64,000 bases of DNA, taken from positions 871 through 64,870 of the forward strand of contig CALVNT010000037.1 of the NCBI GenBank assembly GCA_944349925.1. The letters are read 5' to 3'. The notes beneath the pieces are model-generated. The model saw only the letters and a list, made by a program, of their open reading frames with translations, was not told the origin of the DNA and ran no database searches. The position numbers were made by a program, and so were the translations under genes. Source of the stretch: an uncultured Clostridia bacterium (GTDB lineage Bacteria; Bacillota; Clostridia; Christensenellales; UBA1242). Positions 8,024 through 60,182 of the stretch are shown here, piece by piece; positions within the stretch are counted from its first letter, which is position 1; every line of letters starts with the position of its first letter.

Positions 8024-8798
8024 TTCTTCCTCCTAAACAAAATAATTTTTGAGCATTCAAACTTGTTTGAACTGCAACCTCTTCTACACTTATACCTTTT
8101 AATTTTGCTAAGTTTTCTGCAATTGTTGGTATAAATTCTGGGCTGTTTCTTTTTCCTCTAAACGGATGAGGGGTAAGATAAGGGCAATCTGTTTCTAAAA
8201 GTATTTTGTCTAATGGAATAACTTTTAAAGTTTCCTTTAAATTTTGCGCGTTTTTAAAAGTCGAAACTCCACCAACCGATATATTTAATCCTAGTTTTAT
8301 AAGTTGAAAAGCACTTTCTTTGCTACCTGAAAAGCAATGCATAGTTCCGCCAAATTCTAAAAGATTTTTATTTTGATTTAATATCTCTATCATATCGCCA
8401 ATCGCTTCGCGACAATGTATTATTACCGGCTTTTTTAACTTATACGCAAGCTCTAGTTGCATCAAAAAAGCCTTTTTTTGTATTTCTTTTTTGGGTGCTC
8501 CTTCCGTAAATTGCATACCTATTTCGCCTATGGCAACAACCTTTCCATCTTTTGCCATTTCTTCTAGTTTTGCTAGCCCCAAAGCGTCCGCCTCTTCAGC
8601 ATATTCAGGATAGATTCCAACAGAAGCGAAAACATTTTTGTACTTATTTGCAAACTCAACCGCTTTTAAAGAAGAGCTGAGATTGAAACCTGAAGTTATA
8701 ACAAAATCAACACCGAGCTCGTACGAATGTTTTAAAACTTTTTCTATATCATTATCAAAAAGAATATCGGTAAGATGGGCATGAGTATCAATAAACAT
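8016..8798 (-). CDS. TatD-family metal-dependent hydrolase/DNase
   Basis: MFIDTHAHL N-terminus, HCFSG and ETDCPYL motifs, GGAAGGA SD. 8-nt overlap with rsmA. Confidence 0.85.
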   Translation of the reverse strand: MFIDTHAHLTDILFDNDIEKVLKHSYELGVDFVITSGFNLSSSLKAVEFANKYKNVFASVGIYPEYAEEADALGLAKLEEMAKDGKVVAIGEIGMQFTEGAPKKEIQKKAFLMQLELAYKLKKPVIIHCREAIGDMIEILNQNKNLLEFGGTMHCFSGSKESAFQLIKLGLNISVGGVSTFKNAQNLKETLKVIPLDKILLETDCPYLTPHPFRGKRNSPEFIPTIAENLAKLKGISVEEVAVQTSLNAQKLFCLGGRNA

Positions 8799-14530: not shown

Positions 14531-14558
14531 AAAGGCAAGTTATAATCTTGCCTTTTTT
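14531..14558. terminator. bidirectional terminator (end of the 12812 gene and of the tRNA pair)
   Basis: AAGGCAAG-7 nt-CTTGCCTT hairpin followed by TTTT. Confidence 0.7.
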
Positions 14559-14632
14559 GGTCGAGGTGGTGGGATTTGAACCCACGACCTTATGGTCCCG
14601 AAACATACGCGCTACACCTGCGATACGCCTCG
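14558..14632 (-). tRNA. tRNA-Pro(CGG), with three non-Watson-Crick stem positions
   Basis: Reverse complement CGAGGCGTATCGCAGGTGTAGCGCGTATGTTTCGGGACCATAAGGTCGTGGGTTCAAATCCCACCACCTCGACCA. Cloverleaf with anticodon loop TTCGGGA and encoded CCA. Mismatches at 6:67 (C/A), 10:25 (U/C) and 31:39 (U/C). Confidence 0.75.
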
Positions 14633-14725: not shown

Positions 14726-14799
14726 TGGAGCAGGCAACGGGAATCGGACCCGCGAATTATGCTTGGGAAGCACACATTTTACCACTAAATTATGCCTGC
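14726..14799 (-). tRNA. tRNA-Gly(CCC)
   Basis: Reverse complement GCAGGCATAATTTAGTGGTAAAATGTGTGCTTCCCAAGCATAATTCGCGGGTCCGATTCCCGTTGCCTGCTCCA. Anticodon loop TTCCCAA. T-loop reads TCCGATT (C at position 55). Confidence 0.8.
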
Positions 14800-15102: not shown

Positions 15103-16734
15103 TTAGATCTCTTGTATTTTTGCTAGTCTTTCTCTAGTTTCTTCTTCACCAAGTGCGTCTATAATATAGTAAAGAGACGGCCCGCTTTCCTGACCAGTAA
15201 TAGCATATCTTGCATACAAACAAGCTTTTGCAATATTTCCTTTATAATCTTGTGGATTTTGTTTATACAATTTATTGTCAATGGCAAAACCATTTTCTCC
15301 TGCCACTTTTTTTATGTGTTCAAACCATTCTTCATTTGATTTAGGCATAACAAAACTTTCAAGATAAACTTTTATAAATTCTTTAAAATTTTCATCTAAA
15401 TTGTTTATTTGTGGCCTATCAAAAGCATATACAAAATATGATTTCATCATTTTATAATTAAAAATATCTTTTCGTGGTTTAATACAATTATCTCTTTCCA
15501 TAGAGCACAATTTAATAAACTTTTCTTTTTGCCGTTCTAGCAATTGAGAAAGTGGCAAATCAAATTCTTTTGCCCAATTTAACCAATTTTGGTACAGTCT
15601 TTCTCCGCTTTGAAAAGCAATAACATTCTTTGCAATATCGTTTAGTTTTATTAAATCAAAAACAGGTGCCACTGTAGTTATATCTTTTATACCGAACTTA
15701 TATTCGCTCCAAGGTAAATCTGGATTCTGTTTACGCCAAATTTCAAAACCAGAGTTTATCAAGTTTAAAAGATATTCTAAAACACTTTCTATAGGATAAC
15801 CTTCACTGAAATAATATCGCATATCTGCTTCGGGGTCTTTGCGTTTTGAAATTTTGCGTTTACTACCACTCTCATCAATTTTCCAAATCAATGGGTTATG
15901 GCAGTAACAAATTGGCTTAAATCCCAGTGCTTCAAACAATTCGATGTGCATAGGTGTTGAAGAGATATACTCTTCCCCTCTTACAACAATTGTTGTACCC
16001 ATCAAAGTGTCATCTATTGCGTGAGCAAATGCGTATGGAGGCACTCCATCATTTTTCAAAAGAATAAAATCTTTACTATTTGCTTTCGCTTCTATTTCAC
16101 CTTTTATTAAATCATAAAATTTTACTCTTTGCGAGCCATCGTTTTTAGTTTTTAAACGTATAGCAAAACTTTCGCCGTTGTCTATGTGTGTTTTTATTTC
16201 GTCAAAAGTCATATTTCTGCAAGGATCATATTCTTTTTCGTCATCTTGTTGAAATTTGCTTTCTCTAAGCTTCAAAACATCTTCTTTTCCTTCAGTTTTT
16301 TTGCAAAAGCAAGGAAAAGCTTTACCTTCTGCAACGAGTTTTTTTGCAAAAGCACGATATATGTCAACCCTTTGACTTTGTACATATGGACCATAATTTC
16401 CGACATCTTTACCATCTAGCGTTTGAAATTCATCAGGAAAAATATTAAACCTTTCAAGGACTTGATATATAACATTTTTTGCTTCTTTTATTTCCCTTTT
16501 GGAGTCTGTGTCTTCAAACCTTAAATAAAAAACTCCATCACTTTGTTTTGCAATGTTGTAACTGATAAAAGCAGGAAAGAAATTCCCTATATGCATAAAG
16601 CCGGTAGGACTTGGAGCAAACCTTGTTACTTCTTGTCCATGTTTAAGATTTCTATTTGGATATCTTTTTAAAATTTCATCAGTGCTAATTCCACCGGGGA
16701 AAATAAGTTCTGCAATTTTTTGATTGTCGTTCAT
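15103..16734 (-). CDS. gltX: glutamate--tRNA ligase
   Basis: RFAPSPTGFMHIGN (HIGH region) and KISKRK (KMSKS). Confidence 0.88.
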   Translation of the reverse strand: MNDNQKIAELIFPGGISTDEILKRYPNRNLKHGQEVTRFAPSPTGFMHIGNFFPAFISYNIAKQSDGVFYLRFEDTDSKREIKEAKNVIYQVLERFNIFPDEFQTLDGKDVGNYGPYVQSQRVDIYRAFAKKLVAEGKAFPCFCKKTEGKEDVLKLRESKFQQDDEKEYDPCRNMTFDEIKTHIDNGESFAIRLKTKNDGSQRVKFYDLIKGEIEAKANSKDFILLKNDGVPPYAFAHAIDDTLMGTTIVVRGEEYISSTPMHIELFEALGFKPICYCHNPLIWKIDESGSKRKISKRKDPEADMRYYFSEGYPIESVLEYLLNLINSGFEIWRKQNPDLPWSEYKFGIKDITTVAPVFDLIKLNDIAKNVIAFQSGERLYQNWLNWAKEFDLPLSQLLERQKEKFIKLCSMERDNCIKPRKDIFNYKMMKSYFVYAFDRPQINNLDENFKEFIKVYLESFVMPKSNEEWFEHIKKVAGENGFAIDNKLYKQNPQDYKGNIAKACLYARYAITGQESGPSLYYIIDALGEEETRERLAKIQEI

Positions 16735-16749
16735 AATTCTCCTATAAAA

Positions 16750-17748
16750 CTATTTTTCTGTAGAATAAAGATTTGATATTTGCGAAACAAAACTATCTAA
16801 TATTTTATTGCTTGCAAAATAATTTTCGATTTTTTGATAATAATTTTTAGCATCTTCAAGAGAAGCTGAATATTGATCTATATTGCCATTAAAATTAACT
16901 AATAAATTGTACATTGAAAAATTGTTTAAAGATTTTTCTAAATTAACTCTTTCTTCTTTTATTTTTTTCTCTACATCTTTTAAATTTACAAAACCTTCTT
17001 GCTTATCCGCAATACTGTCTTCAGTAATAAAGAAATATTGAACATTGTAAATCTTATTTAAAATTGAGCTAGCACTAAGATAAATTGAATTGTCTGAAAA
17101 TTTTTCTCCTTTGTATGAAGAAAGTAAAAGTTTTTGACAATCGCTGGCAATATCAAGGCGAATGCAATCTAAATATTGATTTGCCTCGTTTATTGAGATT
17201 TCGCTAAAATCTTCATTTATGATTTTAATATCATTGAGCAAAGCGTCTTTTACTGATAAAGCAAGATTGTAAATATTTTTTAAAAAATCTAAACTGTCGC
17301 TTTGGTATTTAGTTGCAAAGCCATTGTATATAAGACTTGTCGACCCTTCTTTTATTTGAACAAGATCTTCATAACTTTGTTGTGTTTTATTAAAAAATTC
17401 TACTGCTTGATCAAGATTTGACGAGATAGCCGAGTAATCATAATTTTCATTTAAATTATTAAAATTGAAATAATAATCTTGAATAAAGTCTAATGCGATT
17501 TTTGACAATAATTGACAGTTAGAATCAATTTCTTCAAATTGTCCATCATCTTTCTTTTTATTAAATTCTTTAAATTGATTGTTTTCAATAAATGATGTTT
17601 CTTGATTGATATCTGCAACAAAGCTGTCGAGTTTATTGTAAATTTCTTTTGAACTAGTTTGCTCATTGCAACCAAACATCAAGATTGCACTGAACACCAC
17701 AAGAAGAGCGCACAATACAAAAACTAAACTTTTTTTCGCTTTTATCAT
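16750..17748 (-). CDS. putative lipoprotein, function unknown
   Basis: Signal peptide with lipobox LMFGC; Asn/Tyr-rich helical body. Confidence 0.6.
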   Translation of the reverse strand: MIKAKKSLVFVLCALLVVFSAILMFGCNEQTSSKEIYNKLDSFVADINQETSFIENNQFKEFNKKKDDGQFEEIDSNCQLLSKIALDFIQDYYFNFNNLNENYDYSAISSNLDQAVEFFNKTQQSYEDLVQIKEGSTSLIYNGFATKYQSDSLDFLKNIYNLALSVKDALLNDIKIINEDFSEISINEANQYLDCIRLDIASDCQKLLLSSYKGEKFSDNSIYLSASSILNKIYNVQYFFITEDSIADKQEGFVNLKDVEKKIKEERVNLEKSLNNFSMYNLLVNFNGNIDQYSASLEDAKNYYQKIENYFASNKILDSFVSQISNLYSTEK

Positions 17749-18713
17749 AAATTACCTCCCAAGAAGGCTTTCACTTGATTGTATATCCCTTCTTCGTCTT
17801 CTATTCCTTCAAATGTTTTGGTAAAAGAAATAATGTTTGTCTCTGATAATTTTACACTTGAAATAACTTGCTGAAAGGTTTGTTGCTGATAAAGGCTATA
17901 AAATTGATTCACTTTATTATAGTTTGTTACTATATTGTCATTAAAATAATAATTTAAAGCATTATCTGCGTTTAATACATACGAACTTACAAAATTGTTA
18001 AAAGCGTATACTAATGCATGGCAATTGTATTTATATGATGAGAAAGCCTGCTGAATTTTATCTTCATTACTAAGAATTTTAAACTGTTTTTGCAATACAG
18101 TTATATAATCTAAAACCGCATTCGCTGATAGTATAGATGCTAAATTTTGTTCTACGCCAAAATAACTATTTTTGAATATTTCGTTATAAGTTGACAACCC
18201 CGTTTTATAACATTCTAACATTTTTTCAAAGTTTATTCTTATCTGTATCCAAGATTGTCTTAAAAAGTCGGGTGAATCTTTCGTGTATGATTGCACTTTC
18301 TTTAGCTCATTTTTTATAGAGTCTTTATACTCTTGAAGCTGATTAAAAGATTCCGTCAAAGGTTTATAATTATCATAAAAATATTCATTTTCCTCAAAGA
18401 ATATTGAATAGTCCTCGTATTTATCAATTATAATTTCAAGACTTGATAAAACGCTCTCAACATCTTCCATTTCTTGATTATAACCTTTTACCGAACTTTG
18501 AGAAACTGTATCTTTAAAATTATTATAAAGCTCTTTGTCTTTTGAACTGCTTAACAAAAATGTGTTTTCTTCGTTTTTTAATGCTTCAATAGCACTCTTA
18601 GGATTGCCCGGCAAACACAATATTATTGTAACAACAATAATTGCAATTAAAACTAGTATTGCTATGACAATTAGCCATTTTTTGTTAAAAGCTTTTTTCT
18701 CTCCTTCTGCCAC
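17745..18713 (-). CDS. N-terminally membrane-anchored protein, function unknown
   Basis: GTG start after GGAGGG, single TM (WLIVIAILVLIAIIVVTIILCL). Co-oriented with and overlapping the next gene by 4 nt. Confidence 0.55.
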   Translation of the reverse strand: MAEGEKKAFNKKWLIVIAILVLIAIIVVTIILCLPGNPKSAIEALKNEENTFLLSSSKDKELYNNFKDTVSQSSVKGYNQEMEDVESVLSSLEIIIDKYEDYSIFFEENEYFYDNYKPLTESFNQLQEYKDSIKNELKKVQSYTKDSPDFLRQSWIQIRINFEKMLECYKTGLSTYNEIFKNSYFGVEQNLASILSANAVLDYITVLQKQFKILSNEDKIQQAFSSYKYNCHALVYAFNNFVSSYVLNADNALNYYFNDNIVTNYNKVNQFYSLYQQQTFQQVISSVKLSETNIISFTKTFEGIEDEEGIYNQVKAFLGGNL

Positions 18714-33571: not shown

Positions 33572-33659
33572 GGAAGGATGGCTGAGCGGTCGAAAGCGGC
33601 GGTCTTGAAAACCGTTGATGTGAAAGCATCCTGGGGTTCGAATCCCTATCCTTCCGCCA
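33572..33659 (+). tRNA. tRNA-Ser(UGA)
   Basis: GGAAGGATGGCTGAGCGGTCGAAAGCGGCGGTCTTGAAAACCGTTGATGTGAAAGCATCCTGGGGTTCGAATCCCTATCCTTCCGCCA. Long variable arm, anticodon loop CTTGAAA, encoded CCA. Confidence 0.9.
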
Positions 33660-33771: not shown

Positions 33772-34557
33772 ATGTTATATGATTATTCTAAAAATATTAT
33801 AATATGTGAAGATAGAAAGCAAGTTATTAATAGTAAAATATATTTTCAAATACAATGCATTCATGGTTATAAAGATATATATGCTAAGCGTTTTATAAAT
33901 AAAGGTGAATACGGAGGTTTTGTTCATTCAAGTATTTCGAAAATTACTAATTGGATTGAAGAAAATGACATTTTGGGTATGCCGATAACTGAAATTTGTT
34001 ATATCCAGAAAGTATCTTCTTATTGTAAATATAGAAAAAGTAATTTATTAAATCATGTAAATTTTGTTAAAGAATATGTAAATTTTTGTATGTATAATAA
34101 GAAAGGAACTTCTGAACATAGCAAAATAAATGCACATCTTTGGAATTCGCAAAGAATATTAGGGATGATAGAAGAATTAAAACAAAATGAAGAAATTATT
34201 ATTAATCAACATACTGAAATATCTGATGCAAAAAAAATAGTACTTTGGCTTCTTTTAGGAGCTATTTCTGAAGCAATTCTAAAATTACATATCATATTAA
34301 CGAGAGAGAAGTATAAAGATTTTGAAAAATCAGATTATGAAAAACTAAAAGTTAAAGATATAATAAATAAAATGTATGAACAAAAAGACATTTCAAAAGA
34401 AGATAGCATCTTTTTACATAAATTAAATGGCAATAGAAACATGATACATATATTAAATAACGAAAATATTTATAATTACGAAGAATATTGTATTGCAATA
34501 GATAATCTATTTCAAATATTAACAGATTTATATAATATACAAAAAAGTATGATTTAA
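33772..34557 (+). CDS. hypothetical protein (261 aa), first island gene
   Basis: GGAGAG SD; no family recognised. Confidence 0.5.
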   Translation: MLYDYSKNIIICEDRKQVINSKIYFQIQCIHGYKDIYAKRFINKGEYGGFVHSSISKITNWIEENDILGMPITEICYIQKVSSYCKYRKSNLLNHVNFVKEYVNFCMYNKKGTSEHSKINAHLWNSQRILGMIEELKQNEEIIINQHTEISDAKKIVLWLLLGAISEAILKLHIILTREKYKDFEKSDYEKLKVKDIINKMYEQKDISKEDSIFLHKLNGNRNMIHILNNENIYNYEEYCIAIDNLFQILTDLYNIQKSMI

Positions 34558-34609: not shown

Positions 34610-35182
34610 TCATAAATCTAATTTGTATTTAATTGTATTAAAAGCAATCTCAAAAACCTCATTTTGCGATAAAAAAGATGTGTCTATTATTAAGTGCTTA
34701 AGTCTATATTTTTTAATATATTGAATTAATTTTTTTTCGTCTGCATTTAAAATAATTTCATTTTGCAAATCAGAATCATGCGGATTTCGTTTTAAAAGCC
34801 TAGTTTTTCTTATTTCTGGAGTTGCTGTTAATAAAATTGTAAAATCAGGCTTTCCAAAATTTTTAATTGAATTTTTAAATATAAATTCACTAACTTTATT
34901 GCCATTCCAATAATAATTTAATAGAGCATGCCTGTCTAAAATTACATTTTTATTTTTATAATATTCAAGAGCATAATTATCGCCTATTGACAAAAACATC
35001 GCAGTTAATAAACTGTTATTATAATTAATTACTTTTTCAGAAATTTTTCTATAATCATTTTCAGAAATGTCATATAACTTGCACTCAGGGTGTTTAACAT
35101 ATTCATATTTCAATTTTTTTGATAATTGTAGGGCAAGCGACGTTTTGCCAACTCCATCATGTCCTTCAATTGCTATAATCAT
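34610..35182 (-). CDS. thymidylate-kinase-family P-loop nucleotide kinase
   Basis: MIIAIEGHDGVGKTSLA (P-loop), LDRHALLNYYW (DR[YH] motif region) and PDFTILLTATPEIRKTRLLKR (lid/PD..L region). Confidence 0.7.
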   Translation of the reverse strand: MIIAIEGHDGVGKTSLALQLSKKLKYEYVKHPECKLYDISENDYRKISEKVINYNNSLLTAMFLSIGDNYALEYYKNKNVILDRHALLNYYWNGNKVSEFIFKNSIKNFGKPDFTILLTATPEIRKTRLLKRNPHDSDLQNEIILNADEKKLIQYIKKYRLKHLIIDTSFLSQNEVFEIAFNTIKYKLDL

Positions 35183-35778
35183 TGTCCTTCTCTCCTTAAT
35201 AAAAATTTAGTTAATTTTTTATACAAATTGTCCTCATATAACAAAGTTTTGCAACCAGCTGTTTGTGGGTTTTTTATATCCATTTCCCAATTGTCACCAA
35301 TATGTAATATTTCTTGTGGGTCCATTTTAAACATAGTAGCTAATTTTTTAAATGCTATTGCCGGTTTACCTGCAATATGGAAATCTTCCAATGTTGATAT
35401 ACAAGTTTTAAATAATGCTTGATACTCTCCAAGTTCAAAATCTATAAATGTATGAGTAGTAGTAGAAAATATTACGCAAGGAATTTTACTTTTACTTATA
35501 AAGTCTAATATTTTTAAATCAAGTTTGGGTTTATCTATTTTTTCAAGCTCATATTTAGTATTAAAATTTAAAAGATTTTCCCAATATTTTTCATCATAAT
35601 ATTTAAAATCATACTTTCCTACTTCGTTAAAAAAAATTTTTAGATTGTCCTTTGCTTCTTGTATGCCAATATTATAATGCTTTGCGTATTTTTCAGGTAA
35701 AATTTTTAACCAGAATGTGTCAGAAAAATTGGAATTTGAAATAGTTCCTTGCAAATCAAAGCTTATTAATTTTATCAT
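35179..35778 (-). CDS. HAD-superfamily hydrolase (phosphatase-like)
   Basis: Motif I FDLQGT (Gln at Asp+2) and motif IV HIGDNWEMDI. Confidence 0.65.
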   Translation of the reverse strand: MIKLISFDLQGTISNSNFSDTFWLKILPEKYAKHYNIGIQEAKDNLKIFFNEVGKYDFKYYDEKYWENLLNFNTKYELEKIDKPKLDLKILDFISKSKIPCVIFSTTTHTFIDFELGEYQALFKTCISTLEDFHIAGKPAIAFKKLATMFKMDPQEILHIGDNWEMDIKNPQTAGCKTLLYEDNLYKKLTKFLLRREGQ

Positions 35779-36299
35779 CTTTTCTCCTTAACTTTTACAA
35801 GTGAGAAAATATCATATTCTTTTAAATCTTTTCTTCCATTTAAATATTCTAGCTCTGTTATATACACTAAAGCATTTACTTTTGCTTTTTGTTTTTTAAC
35901 TAGGTTAATTGCCGCCAAGCTAGCACCACTTCCAGCCATAATATCATAAATTATAGCACAATTATCATTCTCAATTAATGCGTCTACTTTTAATTGATAT
36001 TCAGCTTTACCGTATTCTTTGATAAATTTTTCGCTATAATAATCACCAGGAATTAAATTTGGCTTTCTTATAAGAACTAAAGGCAAGTTCAATAAATGGG
36101 CGATGATTGAACCAATAGTAAATCCTTTAGATTCTATAGCCACAATTTTTGTTATTTTTTTGTCTTTTAAAAACTCTAAAATTTTATTTATTGCCATATT
36201 TCTTGCACTTACATTTTTAAGTAGATAAGTAAAATCCCAATATTTAACACCCTCTTTAGGGAAATTGTCGTAACCTTTTACAAATTTTTCAAACTCCAT
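35775..36299 (-). CDS. adenine-phosphoribosyltransferase-like protein with altered PRPP loop
   Basis: Collinear with Apt: YDNFPKEGVKYWDFTYLL, ITKIVAIESKGFTIG, VLIRKPNLIP, EYGKAEYQLKVDAL. The PRPP loop IIYDIMAGSGAS replaces VVDDLLATGGT. Confidence 0.7.
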   Translation of the reverse strand: MEFEKFVKGYDNFPKEGVKYWDFTYLLKNVSARNMAINKILEFLKDKKITKIVAIESKGFTIGSIIAHLLNLPLVLIRKPNLIPGDYYSEKFIKEYGKAEYQLKVDALIENDNCAIIYDIMAGSGASLAAINLVKKQKAKVNALVYITELEYLNGRKDLKEYDIFSLVKVKEKR

Positions 36300-36304
36300 A
36301 AATA

Positions 36305-36919
36305 TTATTCCTCCATAAGTATTGCTCTTGATGGACCAGCATCAATGCCAGTTACTTTAATTGGTAAGCAAATAAGTTTATATTCTTTTTCAACCGTGTC
36401 TTTTAGCCTCAGATTATCTAAACAAATAATGTTTTTTTCCATAAAAATTCTATGTATTTTACATTCTCCATTTCTTTCAAAACTTTGATAATCATAACCT
36501 ACAAGAATTACACCCAAATCCCTTAGATATTCTGCTGCATCTTCTGTCAATGCAACATGTTCAGGATTGTATTTTTCCATTTTATCATATGAATTTTTAG
36601 TTTTTAAAAGTATTCTTTTTAAGTAAATATCTTTTTTCTGTAAGTCTTTTTTAGTTATCATATCATCTGCTTCTGTTAAATCTAACACTTGACAATCACC
36701 AATCAATACTTCAAATGGTACTTCATCACTTTTCCATTTATCATTAAACAAATAATACGGAGCATCTATGTGCGTTCCGGCGTGAGCACCAAAATCAAGC
36801 CACGTAAAGTTAACTGGTGCATCCGGTATTCGAGCTAATCGAATTAGCTTTGGTGGCTCATCATCTTTCCAGACAATAGTGCGTTCATTAAGCTCCATTG
36901 ATATATCAATAATATTCAT
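36305..36919 (-). CDS. cyclase-family protein (kynurenine-formamidase-like metal hydrolase)
   Basis: FGAHAGTHIDAPYY signature of the putative cyclase / KynB family. Confidence 0.7.
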   Translation of the reverse strand: MNIIDISMELNERTIVWKDDEPPKLIRLARIPDAPVNFTWLDFGAHAGTHIDAPYYLFNDKWKSDEVPFEVLIGDCQVLDLTEADDMITKKDLQKKDIYLKRILLKTKNSYDKMEKYNPEHVALTEDAAEYLRDLGVILVGYDYQSFERNGECKIHRIFMEKNIICLDNLRLKDTVEKEYKLICLPIKVTGIDAGPSRAILMEE

Positions 36920-38159
36920 AGATCTCTCCTAACTTTTTATTTATTCTTTTTAGCCAATTGATTCTATATGTACTAAATTTTTTTAGTATTTGATTTAAAA
37001 TGAATAATCTATATTTTTTATATTTTCTTAATATACTTTCTGAATATTTTATATTGCATTTTAATTTTTCAAAAGCATTCCAATAGTCAAGGTGGTTTTT
37101 TACTGGCATAGGTGACCATGCTGGCGCATAAATTTCAAAAACTTGATCAAGAAAATCATAATATTTGGAAATGCCATATAACTTAAACTCTAAATCTTTT
37201 ATAATATATCTGGCAATATCTTCAATTCTAATATAGTTTCTTACTTGTTCTTCTACGCAGTTAGATTTTAATTTTGATAATAAATCATTTTTTAAAATAT
37301 AATCTTTTATTGTTTTATAAAACGCCTTACAATTTTTGCCTTCATTTAACACATTTAACAAATCATCTAAATAAATTTTTTCAAATGTATCGGCAGAATA
37401 AAAATAATAACCTATTAAATCAATTCTGTTTTCAAATGGATAAGCCCCATTGGTATAGCACTCTAACTCTGTCTCTTTGCTATAAAGCGTGAATGCAATT
37501 TTATCAACTAAATTTGGTTTTTCTAAAAACATACAGAATGCGGAAAGTTTAAAATCTGGCTTAATATTAAATAATTTAGCAAATAAATTAAAGTTCCTAA
37601 TGATAGTTCCTGCGTTTATATATTCGTCAAAAACCAAAAATTTAGAATTAAAAAATTTAGATAATTTTGTACCATATAAAACTTTATTAAATTGTTTCAA
37701 TATATTATAATTATAATCAAAATTATCATTTATGCTATCTATAATTGTAAATGGTTTTTTCTGTATTAAATTATCCAAATTTGTTTTGTCGCATAAATTT
37801 TTTAAATAATTGCAACGGGGAAGTAAATGATTATTAATTAGTACGTTTTGATTTAATTCAGTTTTGCTAAGATACAATTTAAACCAATCAAACAAATTAA
37901 AGTTCAAATCTCTTGGAATTTTGAGCTGTATAAAGTTTATATCTGAAACTTTATATTCAGGTAAGAGTGTGATAATTTTAAATAAAGGTGCTGTTCCACT
38001 TTCAATAAAAATTACATTTTTGTAATTTGACTTAATAATTTCATCAAAAACCATTTGAGCCATTTTTATTGACTGTTTGTCGTCTTTGTATTTAAATCCA
38101 CGACCAAAATCCTCATTAATAAATTTTGATAAATTATCAATTTTTCCATATGGATTCAT
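36906..38159 (-). CDS. orphan 417-aa protein with a possible PRTase-like PRPP motif
   Basis: FLVFDEYINAGTIIRNF resembles the hhhhD[DE]xxxxGxT PRPP loop; otherwise unrecognised. Confidence 0.35.
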   Translation of the reverse strand: MNPYGKIDNLSKFINEDFGRGFKYKDDKQSIKMAQMVFDEIIKSNYKNVIFIESGTAPLFKIITLLPEYKVSDINFIQLKIPRDLNFNLFDWFKLYLSKTELNQNVLINNHLLPRCNYLKNLCDKTNLDNLIQKKPFTIIDSINDNFDYNYNILKQFNKVLYGTKLSKFFNSKFLVFDEYINAGTIIRNFNLFAKLFNIKPDFKLSAFCMFLEKPNLVDKIAFTLYSKETELECYTNGAYPFENRIDLIGYYFYSADTFEKIYLDDLLNVLNEGKNCKAFYKTIKDYILKNDLLSKLKSNCVEEQVRNYIRIEDIARYIIKDLEFKLYGISKYYDFLDQVFEIYAPAWSPMPVKNHLDYWNAFEKLKCNIKYSESILRKYKKYRLFILNQILKKFSTYRINWLKRINKKLGEIYEYY

Positions 38160-38161
38160 AT

Positions 38162-38818
38162 TTACTCCTTTGCAATTTCAATGAAATTTTTAATTTTTTC
38201 AAAATCTTTTCTATCTTTTTTTAGATAAGTATCGCTGAAGGTGCTAACACCAGTAGATACATCAACACCATATGGCTCGGTTGTTTTAATTGCACCTTGT
38301 AAATTTTGTAGATTTAAACCGCCAGCAATAAAAGAAGGTTTGTTTGTTGATTTCAATAAAATTGATGTTCGTATCCAATCATTTTCTTTGCCCGTTCCAC
38401 CAGTATAATCAAGATTTCTAGAATCAAATAAAAAGTAATCACAATAAGGGTAATAAAGCTTCATTCTGCTTTCTGCATCATTATAATTAGAAACAATTGT
38501 TTTGATAATTTCCCCTAAGAAATTTTCTCTAACAATTTTTATCTGCTTTTCATCAATATCTTCTGATATTTGAATACCTGTACACTTTATATATTTAGCT
38601 AAATCCAAAATGTCCTCAGCATTTAATAAGTGCGTAACTAAAAAGCTTTTAACATTTTTAGGAAATTTTTTTATAGTTTCACGAACCCATTGAGCGTATG
38701 GTTCGACCTCAACAGGCAAAACTTTTCCACCCATAACAAATCCTATACAATCTGCTCCGAGTTTTATCGCATTTAAAGCATCAATTTCGTTACTTATTCC
38801 ACATATTTTAACTTTCAT
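38162..38818 (-). CDS. phosphoribosylanthranilate-isomerase (TrpF/PRAI)-like TIM-barrel protein
   Basis: MKVKICGIS..AIKLGADCIGFV, TGGTGKENDW, FIAGGLNLQNL and YGVDVSTGVS are collinear with TrpF. No other trp genes are nearby. Confidence 0.7.
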   Translation of the reverse strand: MKVKICGISNEIDALNAIKLGADCIGFVMGGKVLPVEVEPYAQWVRETIKKFPKNVKSFLVTHLLNAEDILDLAKYIKCTGIQISEDIDEKQIKIVRENFLGEIIKTIVSNYNDAESRMKLYYPYCDYFLFDSRNLDYTGGTGKENDWIRTSILLKSTNKPSFIAGGLNLQNLQGAIKTTEPYGVDVSTGVSTFSDTYLKKDRKDFEKIKNFIEIAKE

Positions 38819-39656
38819 TTTCTTTTACCTCATAATTATAAACTTCTTTTAAATATTCACCCCACAAACCATCATCATTTCCGCTTTTAGTTTTTAACTT
38901 AGATAAATTGTCAATTGAACCGCGATCGATAACACCATTTTCAGTTACTTCACATAAATTACCATTACCATCAACAAATACATCATAATCGTTTTCAATT
39001 TCAAAATCTTCTTCAACAATAATGCTGTTTTTATAATTTTCTTTGACTTTTTTCATTAAAATTTCATAGGCATCTTTATCTACTTCAAATCTTTTACGAT
39101 AATCTTTTCCATATCCACTGGCGAAAAATTTTCCTAATTTCCAACTTAAAATTTTACTATTCATTAGAGTAAACATATTAGGGATATCATTAATATTCTC
39201 TTTGCCAACCATAGTATTTATTTTAATTTTTACTTTTGGATATTTGCTTGATATATAGTCAACTAGTTTTAAAACATGTTCATGATGATTTTCAAGCGCA
39301 CAGGGACGCATTTTATTATGTATCATAGGGTCAAATGAATCTAATGGCAGATTAATTGCATCTATATAATTTAAAACATCTTCTTTTTGTGGAAGTAGTA
39401 TGCCATTGGTTGAAATTATTGTCATCAATCCCTTGTCTTTGCAATACTTAATTATTTCTATAATATCATCCCTTACAAGTGGATCTCCGCCTGTAAGATT
39501 TATAGCTTTTAAGCCATTGTCAATTAAAACATCTATAACATGTTTTGCCTTTTGTGTACTTATTTGTTCACGATTAATTCTCCAATCAGAAAAGCAAAAT
39601 TCGCAATTCATATTACATCTGCTTGATATTTCAAAACAAGTGTAAACTATTTTCAT
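38808..39656 (-). CDS. radical SAM enzyme, viperin/MoaA-like (no auxiliary cluster)
   Basis: CNMNCEFC (CxxxCxxC), INLTGGDPL, IISTNG, LPLDSFD, IKINTMV, SWKLGKFF. 282 aa with no C-terminal Cys cluster. Confidence 0.65.
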   Translation of the reverse strand: MKIVYTCFEISSRCNMNCEFCFSDWRINREQISTQKAKHVIDVLIDNGLKAINLTGGDPLVRDDIIEIIKYCKDKGLMTIISTNGILLPQKEDVLNYIDAINLPLDSFDPMIHNKMRPCALENHHEHVLKLVDYISSKYPKVKIKINTMVGKENINDIPNMFTLMNSKILSWKLGKFFASGYGKDYRKRFEVDKDAYEILMKKVKENYKNSIIVEEDFEIENDYDVFVDGNGNLCEVTENGVIDRGSIDNLSKLKTKSGNDDGLWGEYLKEVYNYEVKENES

Positions 39657-40753
39657 AAATCCTCCTTAAAAATATTTTCTATTTCATTTTTTACTCTTTC
39701 ATAATCTTCTTTAAAAGTTGTTAAATCCCCATTAATATCTAAATGATTAAACTCACTTCCTCTTTGGGTTGCTTCAGTCGAACCTGCCATATTTACAGCA
39801 CCTATAGATTTTACCCTTGTAATGTTATAGCCGAACTTTTCCATAGCTTTAATTTTTAATGGATTATTTGTCAACATAACAACATTTTTATTTGCTTGTA
39901 TAAAGTCCATAATAATAGGAGTTATATTATATCCAGCACCATCGTTTTCTTTTCTTGGATCTCCTTCAATGCCGATAGTAGTAAAGCCTCCATACATTGT
40001 TGTTTTATAGGTTTGTTCTGCACTATATTCACCTCTGTGACGCATTGAAGCTCGCTCACTTAAATCAAAAACAAATTCATCTTTTGTATAGCCGCTACCC
40101 ATTCCATTTTGAGAATCAATATGCATCAAAACAAATCCAATTTTACTGATTTTACTATAAATATGTTTGCCTTCGCTATATTTAAATTGTTCTTGCACCC
40201 AATGTTCAAAAGCATCTCCATTATCAAATTTAGGTGGCGTGATTTCATTAAAAGTCGCTGATAGTTCTCTGATATTTTTCCATTGATAATAACAATTGCA
40301 TCTTTGAGAACCAAACAAGAATGATGGCGTACAAGCAGATTCTGTTCTTAAAACAATTTTATTATCGTAAATATTGCCTACAATTCCAACGTTTGCATAT
40401 TCCATGCCAATCATGGGATTATAAATACACAAACCAATGTGTCTTACTAGATGTGGTGTTTCATTTTTCTCTGATAAAGAAAATAAAGTTGCACCTTTAT
40501 TGGCAATAATTAAGGACTTTGTTTTTTTATGAATTGCAATATCATATAAATTCATTAAATCACCAGTGGCTTTGTTTTGATCTAGCCCTGTTATAAAATT
40601 TAAAATTATCTTATTAAACATATTTCTATCTTTGATATTCCAAACAGGTGAATTGTCATTTGGAACTTTATCTAATACTTCGATATAAATTTGTCTTATT
40701 CTTTTTATCCTAGATAAATAGTTATTTATTCCGTTTTCAATTTTATCTTTCAT
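39653..40753 (-). CDS. GTP cyclohydrolase II-family protein, divergent, with ~130-aa N-terminal extension
   Basis: RTESACTPSFLFGSQRCNCYYQ (three Zn-ligand Cys as in RibA C..RCDC) and VVMLTNNPLKIKAMEKFGYNITRV (RibA LLTNNPRK..L...G). Confidence 0.65.
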   Translation of the reverse strand: MKDKIENGINNYLSRIKRIRQIYIEVLDKVPNDNSPVWNIKDRNMFNKIILNFITGLDQNKATGDLMNLYDIAIHKKTKSLIIANKGATLFSLSEKNETPHLVRHIGLCIYNPMIGMEYANVGIVGNIYDNKIVLRTESACTPSFLFGSQRCNCYYQWKNIRELSATFNEITPPKFDNGDAFEHWVQEQFKYSEGKHIYSKISKIGFVLMHIDSQNGMGSGYTKDEFVFDLSERASMRHRGEYSAEQTYKTTMYGGFTTIGIEGDPRKENDGAGYNITPIIMDFIQANKNVVMLTNNPLKIKAMEKFGYNITRVKSIGAVNMAGSTEATQRGSEFNHLDINGDLTTFKEDYERVKNEIENIFKEDL

Positions 40754-41300
40754 TTTTTTCTCCTAAATTATTTTCAAAATTTTTAAAGATTTGGTTTAAT
40801 CTTTCATATTCATCTACATGCGGGAATATATTGCTACTTCTATCGTGTTTGAAAATTTCTGCCATTTCAAAATATTGGGCACATTCTACTTCTTCTTGTT
40901 GATATCTTAAATCTTCAAGATTAACATTTTTTTTCAATACAAATACATCTACAAATTCTCTGCTTACTATGTCTTTCCAAGCAAAATCTTCTTTAATTGT
41001 GAATAGAAATTTAAAGTCTTTGGGCTTCAATTTTAGCCCTAATTCTTCTTCTCCTTCTCTAATGGCACTAATAAGTGATTTTTCTCCCGCAGCAATGTGA
41101 CCAGCAAAGGAACAGTCCCAGTAGTTTGGGAAAAATTTCTTTTTAGCACATCGTTTTTGCATTAATATTTGATTTTTATCATTTACAATCCAAACATGTA
41201 CGCTTTTGTGCCAAAGCCCTTTTTTGTGAGCTATAGCTTTATCAATTACTCCTTTACAATTACCATTTTCATCATACCAATCAATTAATTCATGCTCCAT
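40743..41300 (-). CDS. NUDIX hydrolase
   Basis: Intact Nudix box GHIAAGEKSLISAIREGEEELGL. Start at MEHELIDW after AAGGAG. Confidence 0.8.
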   Translation of the reverse strand: MEHELIDWYDENGNCKGVIDKAIAHKKGLWHKSVHVWIVNDKNQILMQKRCAKKKFFPNYWDCSFAGHIAAGEKSLISAIREGEEELGLKLKPKDFKFLFTIKEDFAWKDIVSREFVDVFVLKKNVNLEDLRYQQEEVECAQYFEMAEIFKHDRSSNIFPHVDEYERLNQIFKNFENNLGEKNER

Positions 41301-41949: not shown

Positions 41950-41998
41950 TTTATACGGTGTCAATATGACACTATCAATATATCATAGCATTAGTGTC
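41950..41998. promoter_or_regulatory. operon promoter (minus strand TTGATA-17-TATAAA) with palindromic operator in the spacer
   Basis: -10 at 41950-41955 and -35 at 41973-41978. Perfect palindrome GTGTCA-ATA-TGACAC at 41958-41972. A further inverted pair is GACACTA (41969-41975) / TAGTGTC (41992-41998). Confidence 0.55.
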
Positions 41999-42120
41999 TT
42001 GTCAACAATTTTATTAAAAATTTTTTAATATTTTTTGTTAAACCAAAAAGTGTTAAATCTACACTAAAAGACTTTACTTTATTTTTTAAATGTTATATAA
42101 TCCTGAAAAGGATATAATTT

Positions 42121-42762
42121 ATGGAATTTAGTAACAAATATGAAAAACAAATGATCTCAGTTGATATTTGCATGTTTTCAATAATAGATAATAAATTAAA
42201 TGTTTTACTTGCGAAAAGAGCTGAAGATCCATATAAAAATATGTGGAGTTTAATTGGCGGTGGAGTTTATAATGACGAAACGTGTGAAAACGCTGTAAAA
42301 AGAGAATTAGCCGAAAAATTAGATATTCATGATATTTCACCTATTCTTTCGAGTGTTTTTAGTGAACCTAAAAGAGATATTAGATTTAGAAATATATCAA
42401 TATCATATTTTTGTTTAGTAAATTCTTCAATAGCACATAAAATTAACACAAAAAAAGTTTTAGAAGTAAAATGGAGTGAAGTATATAAAATTACAAAATT
42501 GGCATTTGATCATAACGATATACTAAATAAAGCAATTAACCAATTAAAGGAAAAAGCTTTTGATATTGATTTCATGAAACCTTACCTACCTAAATATTTT
42601 ACTTTATCCACACTTCAATCAATATTTGAAAGTATTCTGCAAACGAATTTAGATAAAAGAAATTTTAGAAGAAAGTTAAATTCTTTAAATTGTTTAATTG
42701 ATACAGGTGAAAAAAACGAATTAGACAAACATAAAAAATCTGTTATTTATCAATTAAAATAA
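42121..42762 (+). CDS. NrtR-like Nudix-related transcriptional regulator
   Basis: N-terminal Nudix fold with degenerate box (GGGVYNDETCENAVKRELAEKLDI). C-terminal winged-helix signature FTLSTLQSIFESILQTNLDKRNFRRKL...SVIYQL. Confidence 0.7.
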   Translation: MEFSNKYEKQMISVDICMFSIIDNKLNVLLAKRAEDPYKNMWSLIGGGVYNDETCENAVKRELAEKLDIHDISPILSSVFSEPKRDIRFRNISISYFCLVNSSIAHKINTKKVLEVKWSEVYKITKLAFDHNDILNKAINQLKEKAFDIDFMKPYLPKYFTLSTLQSIFESILQTNLDKRNFRRKLNSLNCLIDTGEKNELDKHKKSVIYQLK

Positions 42763-60096: not shown

Positions 60097-60182
60097 GCGG
60101 AAGTGGCGAAATGGCAGACGCGCAGGTTTCAGGTACCTGTGGTAGCAATACCTTGTGAGTTCGACTCTCATCTTCCGCACCA
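60097..60182 (+). tRNA. tRNA-Leu(CAG)
   Basis: GCGGAAGTGGCGAAATGGCAGACGCGCAGGTTTCAGGTACCTGTGGTAGCAATACCTTGTGAGTTCGACTCTCATCTTCCGCACCA. Long variable arm and encoded CCA. Confidence 0.88.

Follow-up and report, generated by a model that had tools for sequence, protein, structure and literature searches.

Gene organization

The window analyzed here is a stretch of 64,000 nucleotides from the genome of an uncultured Clostridia bacterium of the Christensenellales (GenBank assembly GCA_944349925.1, contig CALVNT010000037.1, positions 871 to 64,870), and coordinates are counted from its first letter. Ten genes on its minus strand form an operon, and the subject of this work is the fourth of them, which encodes a radical S-adenosylmethionine (SAM) protein with a resemblance to viperin. 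In the order of transcription the operon encodes a phosphoribosyltransferase (PRTase) of the PRK07322 type, a Nudix hydrolase, a GTP-cyclohydrolase-II-like (GCH-II-like) enzyme, the radical SAM protein, a TrpF-like isomerase, a 417-residue protein, a cyclase-family hydrolase, a PRTase resembling adenine phosphoribosyltransferase (APRT), a HAD-family phosphatase and a Tmk-like kinase (Table 1). The preliminary description of the locus had placed a kinase of the Tmk family at the end of the operon, and the Thymidylate_kin match of the tenth gene bears this out. Neighboring open reading frames (ORFs) overlap by 4-14 nt or lie 2-5 nt apart, except for the first two genes, where the overlap is 70 nt as listed and 16 nt if the Nudix hydrolase starts at M19. 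The listed Nudix ORF encodes 203 residues; the orthologues and the gene call on an identical public contig have 179-185, and translation probably begins at M19 (MEHELIDWY), near position 41300.

Table 1. Features of the operon and its upstream region in the window.
Position	Strand	Feature	Evidence and remarks
34610..35182	-	Tmk-like nucleoside monophosphate kinase, 190 aa	Thymidylate_kin 48.7 bits (cut-off 27); PADLOC VakA 41 bits; last gene
35179..35778	-	HAD-family phosphatase, 199 aa	Pfam Hydrolase, HAD_2, Hydrolase_like
35775..36299	-	APRT-like type I phosphoribosyltransferase, 174 aa	NF002636 140 bits (cut-off 125); TIGR01090 142 bits (cut-off 186)
36305..36919	-	Cyclase-family arylformamidase-like metal hydrolase, 204 aa	Pfam Cyclase 70 bits; trp_arylform 125 bits (cut-off 223)
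36906..38159	-	417-aa protein, divergent PRTase-like fold and helical C-terminal domain (predicted)	Motif FLVFDEYINAGT, resembling a phosphoribosyl pyrophosphate (PRPP) loop
38162..38818	-	TrpF-like (phosphoribosylanthranilate isomerase, PRAI) Amadori isomerase, 218 aa	Pfam PRAI 66 bits; NCBIfam PRAI 114 bits (cut-off 215)
38808..39656	-	Viperin-fold (predicted) radical SAM enzyme, 282 aa	One CxxxCxxC cluster (C14, C18, C21); founds a distinct family
39653..40753	-	Highly divergent GCH-II-like enzyme, 366 aa	Pfam GTP_cyclohydro2 26 bits
40743..41300 (ORF to 41354)	-	Nudix hydrolase, IDI/YfcD-like subgroup, intact Nudix box	Pfam NUDIX 56 bits
41285..41941	-	PRK07322-type phosphoribosyltransferase, 218 aa, accessory	NF005592 142.5 bits (cut-off 143); first operon gene
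41958..41972		Perfect palindrome GTGTCAATATGACAC, candidate operator of the NrtR-like regulator	Just downstream of the best promoter-like site
41977..42005	-	Best sigma-70-like promoter match	TTGACA, 17-nt spacer, TG-TATATT; 11 of 12 positions, extended -10; consensus match only
42121..42762	+	NrtR-type regulator, Nudix-like and NrtR winged-helix domains	NrtR_WHD 69 bits, NUDIX 54 bits; divergent

Relation to viperin and MoaA

Beginning at an ATG, the radical SAM ORF has a 4-nt overlap with the upstream gene at the stop codon of the latter. Its product matches the Pfam family Radical_SAM (PF04055) with 77 bits (cut-off 29.5). Using chimpanzee RSAD2 as a stand-in for human viperin, BLASTP gave an alignment of 214 residues with 23% identity and an E value of 2e-14. 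The six motif pairs on which the protein had been called collinear with human viperin all fall in register in this alignment: CNMNCEFCF/CNYKCGFCF, INLTGGDPL/INFSGGEPF, IISTNG/IVSNGS, LPLDSFD/ISCDSFD, IKINTMV/FKINSVI and SWKLGKFF/RWKVFQCL. HMMER against the sequence of mouse viperin (5vsl) gave the identical register over residues 8-222 with an E value of 4e-14. Judged by these alignments, the match to viperin clearly exceeds chance.

A search of the PDB sequences placed mouse viperin (E = 4e-14) before MoaA (E = 1e-8). Among the NCBIfam models the best score was obtained with viperin_w_prok (105 bits), followed by archaeal MoaA (88), AhbD (87) and QueE (45). The PADLOC models for prokaryotic viperins (pVips) scored 108-110 bits, with ‘Viperins associated with kinases’ at the top (109.7 bits). 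The MoaA scores remained far below the curated cut-offs (88 vs 325, 82 vs 284 and 77 vs 231 bits), and the QueE match (45 vs 260 bits) covered the N-terminal 76 residues only. PflA reached 23 bits in the PDB sequence search. In single BLASTP comparisons viperin scored 58.5 bits, E. coli MoaA 49.3 and the pVip of Methanomethylovorans 70.5.

Profiles of the families were aligned with hhalign. The alignment of the family with a profile of 11 viperins and pVips scored 237 (E = 1e-34) over 229 columns, up to residue 243, and extends into the β-strands of the C-terminal extension. With MoaA the score was 109 and the alignment ended at residue 196, the MoaA profile consisting of only two sequences, by which this comparison is weakened. 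A structural model was calculated with AlphaFold2 from 26 family sequences and had a mean predicted local distance difference test score (pLDDT) of 90.9. In the model the CxxxCxxC core lies in a partial (βα)6 barrel closed by a C-terminal extension, as in viperin. When the model was compared with the PDB by Foldseek, the ten best matches were all viperins or viperin-like enzymes. The first was mouse viperin with UTP (6q2q), with an E value of 3e-15 and a TM-score on the query (TMq) of 0.75 over 268 of 282 columns. MoaA appeared first at rank 37, with TMq values of 0.58-0.65 and root-mean-square deviations of 8-10 Å, and PflA had TMq values of 0.53-0.57.

Besides the cluster motif the protein contains the cysteines C7, C72, C119 and C236. 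Across the 26 aligned family members no cysteine beyond C21 is invariant, and therefore a MoaA-type second cluster is lacking, as the preliminary description had concluded from the scattered cysteines. The three-cysteine motif that forms this cluster at the C-terminal end of MoaA was not found in the protein, the lone cysteine beyond residue 119 being the non-conserved C236.

On sequence and predicted fold the closest characterized relative of the protein is viperin, ahead of MoaA, QueE and PflA-type activases. Single pairwise comparisons favor viperin over MoaA only modestly; the preference becomes clear with profiles and the predicted fold only. The earlier view of a viperin-like rather than MoaA-like protein holds in the sense of closest relative by sequence, profile and predicted fold, and fails in the sense of membership of the viperin family, as set out below.

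These results bear on the possibility that the protein is a MoaA-like C-C cyclase that joins a ribose carbon to the purine in GTP, in an alternative pterin or molybdopterin type of route in which the GCH-II-like enzyme would then open the ring. MoaA is the second-best NCBIfam family (82-88 bits), a gene of the GTP cyclohydrolase type lies immediately upstream, and the GCH-II-like enzyme, the formamidase and the Amadori isomerase together mimic steps of GTP cyclohydrolase I. The family also shares with MoaA the radical SAM core, the phosphate-binding Lys/Arg pattern and, as we suppose, a nucleotide as substrate. We nevertheless regard such a cyclase as quite improbable, as the auxiliary [4Fe-4S] cluster of MoaA is missing, the C-terminal region is left uncovered by an alignment with about half the viperin score, the fold agrees less well, and moaC and molybdopterin synthase genes were not found nearby.

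Residues shared with and lost from viperins

The scores of the protein remain below the curated viperin cut-offs, with 105.2 vs 180 bits for NF038283 and 47.8 vs 450 bits for TIGR04278. For comparison eight PGAP-annotated pVips were drawn from plasmids. Two PGAP-annotated pVips used for calibration gave 259-324 bits on the PADLOC pVip models, whereas the radical SAM protein gave 110. A large-database search with mouse viperin returned vertebrate RSAD2 only among the matches listed.

Viperin-specific positions were defined in an alignment of 13 family members, 2 vertebrate viperins and 7 plasmid pVips as the 38 columns conserved in at least eight of the nine viperins. Seventeen of these are retained in the family: the Cys triad, N85, GG-x-P, N-G, D-S, K220, N222, N229 and W246-K247 (mouse numbering). 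Some changes among the 21 columns that are not kept are conservative or partial, such as E127, which is replaced by Asp or Glu, and N158, which is present in 9 of the 13 members. The clear losses include N77, H79, S180 and all signature columns of the C-terminal extension. N77 and H79 belong to the N-[YW]-H motif of viperin, located 5-7 residues before the first cluster cysteine; in the family the N77 position is Cys or Thr and the H79 position an invariant glutamate, E9.

The C-terminal extension is present as a fold in the AlphaFold2 model and aligns with that of viperin, but none of its seven signature columns (E293, N295, M298, S301, Y302, G329 and R347) is kept. The preliminary description, which had made this extension a point to be checked, is thus upheld for the fold and not for the viperin-specific residues. 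Two of the latter, Y302 and R347, we take to be contacts of CTP in mouse viperin, following the 6Q2P work. The residues of the barrel core are shared: mouse R194, K220, N222, N229 and W246-K247 correspond to R117, K145, N147, N154 and W172-K173, all invariant in the family. R117 would be the counterpart of the arginine in the GRG motif of viperin (R194), the register being ambiguous by one residue between alignments. The family has in addition invariant residues of its own, namely E9, W25, R26, H113, N114, H124, H125, K168, F177, G183 and Y273.

Taken together, the family resembles viperin and pVips in having a single CxxxCxxC cluster, about 280 residues (in viperin the catalytic domain), the predicted fold including the C-terminal extension, and the GG(D/E)P, (S/T)NG, DS, K-x-N and W-K motifs along with the Arg of GRG/MRP. 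Linkage to a nucleoside monophosphate (NMP) kinase, which is frequent and not universal among viperins, is a further common trait. The family differs in the replacement of N-x-H and the loss of Tyr302 and Arg347, in being encoded within a large operon of metabolic type and not within a defence island, and in forming a clade apart from viperins in the tree described below.

The family and its nearest relatives

A database clustered at 90% contained some 93 close relatives, whose identity to the query is 43-63%, and none of them carries an informative name. One allele of the family is present on 74 contigs. A profile search of 1.8 billion representatives yielded four sequences above 238 bits and then a continuum at 125-210 bits of radical SAM proteins of about 280 residues, which we call the cloud. 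In each of ten cloud members scanned the best NCBIfam model was viperin_w_prok, with 89-125 bits. Of 115 cloud sequences, six had E values under 1e-45; the lowest value, 2.9e-50, was extrapolated to a score still short of the 180-bit cut-off.

Cloud and family have in common their size, viperin_w_prok as the best model with scores below the cut-off, and the occasional presence of an adjacent kinase gene. The cloud proteins are however only 25-33% identical to a family member, and genes for GCH-II-like, TrpF-like and cyclase partners are missing from their contexts, which were seen mostly on short contigs (1-2 kb). A PfkB kinase gene adjoining cloud member P0107 was the sole informative neighbor among the contexts looked up.

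A neighbor-joining (NJ) tree was calculated with 147 sequences comprising the family, 115 cloud relatives, a cloud member from an E. coli plasmid, viperins and pVips, MoaA, MftC, NirJ and SPASM enzymes. The mean NJ distance from the family was 1.84 for the cloud, 2.38 for the viperins and 2.8 for MoaA and SPASM enzymes, and by this measure the cloud is nearer to the family than viperins are. In 200 bootstrap replicates the family was monophyletic in 72% and the viperins in 80%, and the two were sisters in none. On these sequence comparisons the protein appears to found a family of its own, separated by a large gap from its next relatives. Because its scores fall under every curated viperin cut-off, signature residues are lost and the family is never sister to viperins, we consider it, from its sequence, to be a protein of viperin fold that is not a true viperin.

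The plasmid-borne cloud member is encoded on the E. coli IncF plasmid NZ_CP045714.1 (L051, 5974-7971), where a 288-residue radical SAM protein, a deoxynucleoside kinase and NudI form an operon flanked by toxin-antitoxin modules. Its record is labelled ‘radical SAM protein’ only; the protein gave 105 bits with the PADLOC pVip models and 133 bits with the hidden Markov model (HMM) of the family. These three genes may represent an unrecognized defence-type trio.

Conservation and surroundings of the operon

The core of the operon, consisting of the genes for the GCH-II-like enzyme, the radical SAM protein, the TrpF-like isomerase, the 417-residue protein, the cyclase, the APRT-like PRTase and the HAD phosphatase, was found in the same order in 21 related loci. 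These stem from metagenome-assembled genomes of uncultured Clostridia and Eubacteriales, from Methanosarcinales and Woesearchaeota, and from one unclassified archaeon. Among metagenomes of gut Clostridia the operon is frequent. Across the loci, the position in the cluster that stays fixed is that of the radical SAM gene, and an NrtR-like gene adjoins nearly all of them, bacterial and archaeal. The HAD gene was found in most of the loci, and those without it end before its position. In two archaeal loci, L014 and L015, and in L059, a divergent locus from a bacterium, the gene directly after that of the radical SAM enzyme encodes a Tmk-like kinase; L015 also has a gene for PRPP synthetase and L059 one for a major facilitator superfamily (MFS) transporter. 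An orthologue of the PRK07322-type PRTase was present in none of the 21 related loci, and this gene is a lineage-specific addition to the cluster.

The flanking genes are of the housekeeping type and encode ribosomal protein L25, an aminopeptidase, GatD, helicases and NadE. Since the flanks are housekeeping genes and no member of the family was found in a collection of viral contigs, we consider the cluster a metabolic operon and not a defence island. This conclusion concerns directly the idea that the protein is a genuine antiviral pVip which, together with the kinase, makes chain-terminating 3'-deoxy-3',4'-didehydro (ddh) nucleoside triphosphates (ddhNTPs) against phage. The top PADLOC model is indeed that of viperins associated with kinases, the kinase of the operon matches VakA, and real pVips do neighbor nucleoside kinases. 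Such a role is nonetheless highly improbable in view of the NCBIfam scores (105 vs 180 and 48 vs 450 bits), the lost signature residues and the position in the tree, and because a metabolic operon of 8-10 genes with a fixed order in bacteria and archaea, a metabolic regulator of the NrtR type, housekeeping flanks and the absence from the viral contig collection all point elsewhere.

Upstream of the operon lie the candidate promoter and operator listed in Table 1. Loci L004 and L005, whose radical SAM enzyme shares about 50% identity with that of the window, carry the TGTCAnnnTGACA core of the palindrome as well (8151-8163), in the interval that separates regulator gene and operon. No riboswitch or other Rfam element was detected upstream of the operon. 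NrtR-family regulators govern NAD, pentose and PRPP metabolism (PMC2330246). Regulation of this type fits a pathway that consumes PRPP, without identifying which one.

In related loci from several Clostridia metagenome-assembled genomes (L001, L002, L003 and L012, at about 16130-18150) nadE, encoding glutamine-dependent NAD synthetase, lies on the opposite strand between the Nudix and Tmk-like kinase genes. Together with the NrtR-type regulator, this neighbor very tentatively suggests some connection with the metabolism of NAD or ADP-ribose. An NAD pathway, suggested by the regulator and the nearby nadE, was not adopted, as no enzyme of the operon belongs to a family of the NAD pathway and NrtR regulates pentose and PRPP metabolism too.

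Further observations concern the surroundings. In the Clostridia contig L004 a Cas13a gene is found about 6 kb downstream of the cluster (20827 onward), probably by coincidence. Immediately beyond the 3' end of the operon in the window lie a tRNA-Ser(TGA) gene (33572-33659, plus strand) and an ORF of 261 residues without family match (33772-34557, plus strand). Other tRNA genes of the window are located at 14558-14632, 14726-14799 and 60097-60182.

Partner enzymes

The other genes of the operon all encode proteins that, by family assignment or predicted fold, handle nucleotides or phosphoribosyl compounds. The GCH-II-like protein was aligned with E. coli RibA by hhalign over RibA residues 32-177. 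Invariant residues include a Zn-binding Cys triad (C141, C152 and C154), DPR267, which corresponds to the catalytic R128 of RibA, and LTNNPxK. In some GCH-II enzymes a Tyr-to-Met change causes the reaction to stop at the formylated product. The position aligned to this Tyr/Met site varies in the family (Tyr, Gln, Thr, His or Phe), and the alignment is unreliable there. In the TrpF-like protein the N-terminal KICG cysteine, the LFDS aspartate and a GGTG phosphate site were read from the sequence; we take the cysteine and the aspartate to be the catalytic residues of TrpF. From these residues, namely the Zn triad and arginine of the GCH-II-like enzyme, the Cys and Asp of the TrpF-like enzyme and the intact Nudix box, the partner enzymes look active.

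For the 417-residue protein no match was obtained in Pfam, NCBIfam or PADLOC, nor with its family profile against the PDB sequences. The FLVFDEYINAGT motif is invariant among its homologues. An AlphaFold2 model had a pLDDT of 94, and nearly all of the 50 Foldseek matches listed were purine PRTases, as weak matches (E about 1e-2, TMq 0.23) to the N-terminal half. The source name of one homologue, P0468, is from the Patescibacteria group.

When Clostridia are compared with archaea, identity is 60-69% for the cyclase, 54-62% for the TrpF-like enzyme and 51-56% for the GCH-II-like enzyme, but only 36-40% for the radical SAM enzyme and 29-31% for the 417-residue protein. The high identity of the GCH-II-like enzyme and the cyclase across domains points to transfer of the whole cluster between domains and to strong constraint.

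Proposed role and mechanism

With moderate confidence we favor the reading that the protein belongs to a distinct, non-antiviral family of radical SAM enzymes with viperin fold and a single cluster, within an NrtR-regulated operon for purine nucleotide remodelling. More tentatively, we propose a hitherto undescribed pathway common to Bacteria and Archaea in which a purine nucleotide would be ring-opened, deformylated and Amadori-rearranged, after which the radical SAM enzyme would build a new heterocycle or modified nucleotide. The predicted fold, the boundaries of the family, the residues kept and lost and the make-up and distribution of the operon are results of the analysis, whereas the order of steps, the substrate and the chemistry given below are inferred.

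The purine nucleotide would first be made or salvaged. The PRTase-fold enzymes and the Tmk-like kinase would load a base onto PRPP and raise the phosphorylation state. The GCH-II-like enzyme would open the imidazole ring to give an N-(5-phosphoribosyl)aminopyrimidine, formylated or not, from which the cyclase-family formamidase would take off the formyl group and free the amine. The TrpF-like enzyme, as an isomerase of N-(5-phosphoribosyl)arylamines, would then convert the ribosylamine into a ribulosylamine by an Amadori rearrangement. Ring opening, deformylation and the Amadori step are internal steps of GTP cyclohydrolase I. Re-ribosylation would follow the radical step, and phosphates would then be trimmed by the Nudix and HAD enzymes.

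The substrate of the radical SAM enzyme could be a phosphorylated ribosyl or ribulosyl intermediate, or a nucleoside di- or triphosphate itself, held by the phosphate-binding residues common with viperin (R117, K145, N147 and W172-K173). Cleavage of SAM would produce the 5'-deoxyadenosyl radical, which would abstract hydrogen from the sugar-derived chain and so start a dehydration, or else a C-C rearrangement or a ring-forming step. Since the phosphate-binding half of the viperin pocket is kept and the half for the base and α-phosphate is rebuilt, a phosphorylated substrate other than the free nucleoside triphosphate (NTP) of viperin is to be expected. Roughly estimated, rearrangement or ring formation is a doubtful but serious candidate for the chemistry, viperin-type formation of a 3'-deoxy-3',4'-didehydro product a somewhat weaker one, and the remainder is assigned to neither.

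It had earlier been suggested that the enzyme dehydrates or rearranges a nucleotide supplied by the other enzymes of the operon. Of this, a nucleotide or phosphoribosyl substrate remains reasonable, and the Tmk-like partner is conserved, while ddh-type dehydration becomes one of several possible chemistries. Such a substrate fits the setting, a metabolic operon of 8-10 genes found across domains under an NrtR-type regulator and not a viperin-kinase defence pair.

Dehydration may be considered on its own, as a viperin-type reaction put to metabolic use, in which PRTase and Tmk-like kinase would supply an NTP that is converted to the 3'-deoxy-3',4'-didehydro nucleotide and processed further by the operon partners. 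The closest fold and profile are those of viperin, the phosphate-binding core (K220, K247, R194 and N222) is retained, a gene for an NMP kinase adjoins the radical SAM gene in divergent family members, a Nudix hydrolase is at hand for modified NTPs, and the trio on the E. coli plasmid combines a related radical SAM protein with deoxynucleoside kinase and NudI. We think this route possible, though on the unlikely side, given that just 17 of 38 signature positions and 0 of 7 in the C-terminal extension are kept, Tyr302, Arg347, Asn77 and His79 are lost with an invariant Glu in place of His79, and 110 bits stand against 260-324 for real pVips.

Comparison with known pathways

The remodelling pathway proposed above has parallels in the biosynthesis of deazapurine nucleosides and of histidine. 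The tubercidin and toyocamycin clusters belong to the former, the toyocamycin PRTase being ToyH; their cyclohydrolase is GTP cyclohydrolase I, and QueD and a HAD phosphatase are further members of the set. Clusters for deazapurine nucleosides bring together a GTP cyclohydrolase with QueE as radical SAM enzyme, TubE as PRTase dependent on PRPP, and TubG as Nudix hydrolase (PMC6112128). The logic would be the same, as a GTP-derived ring is opened, a radical SAM step follows, and the product is re-ribosylated from PRPP with tailoring of phosphates by Nudix and HAD enzymes. The operon described here differs in having a GCH-II-like enzyme and not GTP cyclohydrolase I, and a viperin fold instead of the QueE fold; its hosts are anaerobic Clostridia and archaea, whereas deazapurine clusters occur in actinomycetes.

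The early histidine pathway (HisG, HisE, HisI and HisA) and TrpD/TrpF provide the same set of roles, with a PRTase, a pyrophosphohydrolase, a ring-opening cyclohydrolase and an Amadori isomerase. No protein of the operon belongs to the His families, and a radical SAM enzyme takes the place of a HisF/H-type synthase; the analogy is one of logic only.

Several observations weigh against the reading as a family of remodelling enzymes. Full-text literature searches found no publication on this operon. The operon lacks QueD and QueC, unlike the deazapurine clusters, and a synthase of the HisF/H type, unlike the histidine pathway. The order of the proposed pathway is deduced from family names alone, several of which are based on matches under the curated cut-offs. 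The residue equivalences with viperin come from sequence alignments with an ambiguity of about one residue, as in the case of R117/R194. The deep NJ phylogeny is weakly supported, and the clan of family, cloud and viperins versus MoaA and SPASM enzymes, which is found in the best NJ tree, has 21-41% support. Finally, the family HMM gives the cores of MftC and NirJ 76 and 68 bits, which is about level with many pVips.

This last result, together with the presence of SkfB and SuiB among the Foldseek matches of the model, would suit a radical SAM enzyme that modifies peptides or proteins, or an activase, encoded in a nucleotide operon by coincidence. We give almost no credence to such an enzyme, since a SPASM/twitch domain was not detected in the protein (no PF13186 match and no C-terminal Cys motif), genes for a precursor peptide or a glycyl-radical enzyme were not found near the radical SAM gene, and the partnership within the operon is strictly conserved over the 21 loci.

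Significance

To our knowledge, viperin is known solely as an antiviral synthase of ddh-nucleotides. A family with the viperin fold and a rebuilt pocket that has become a constant part of a metabolic operon would extend the range of reactions known for this scaffold, and it bears on the origin of viperin-based immunity. Other parts of the operon are unusual as well, in particular the barely recognizable relative of GCH-II, the PRTase-like protein of 417 residues for which there is no family model, and the NrtR-type regulator. The cluster occurs in Woesearchaeota, and a homologue of the 417-residue protein is annotated with a source from the Patescibacteria group, both lineages with small genomes. 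The product of the operon could be a cofactor, part of a salvage route, or a nucleoside antimetabolite relevant to gut ecology. If the proposed pathway is correct, its product might serve as a cofactor, in signalling or as an antimetabolite, and the enzyme would be a case of the viperin scaffold employed in metabolism and not in immunity. In that case it could indicate the type of enzyme from which the antiviral viperins evolved.

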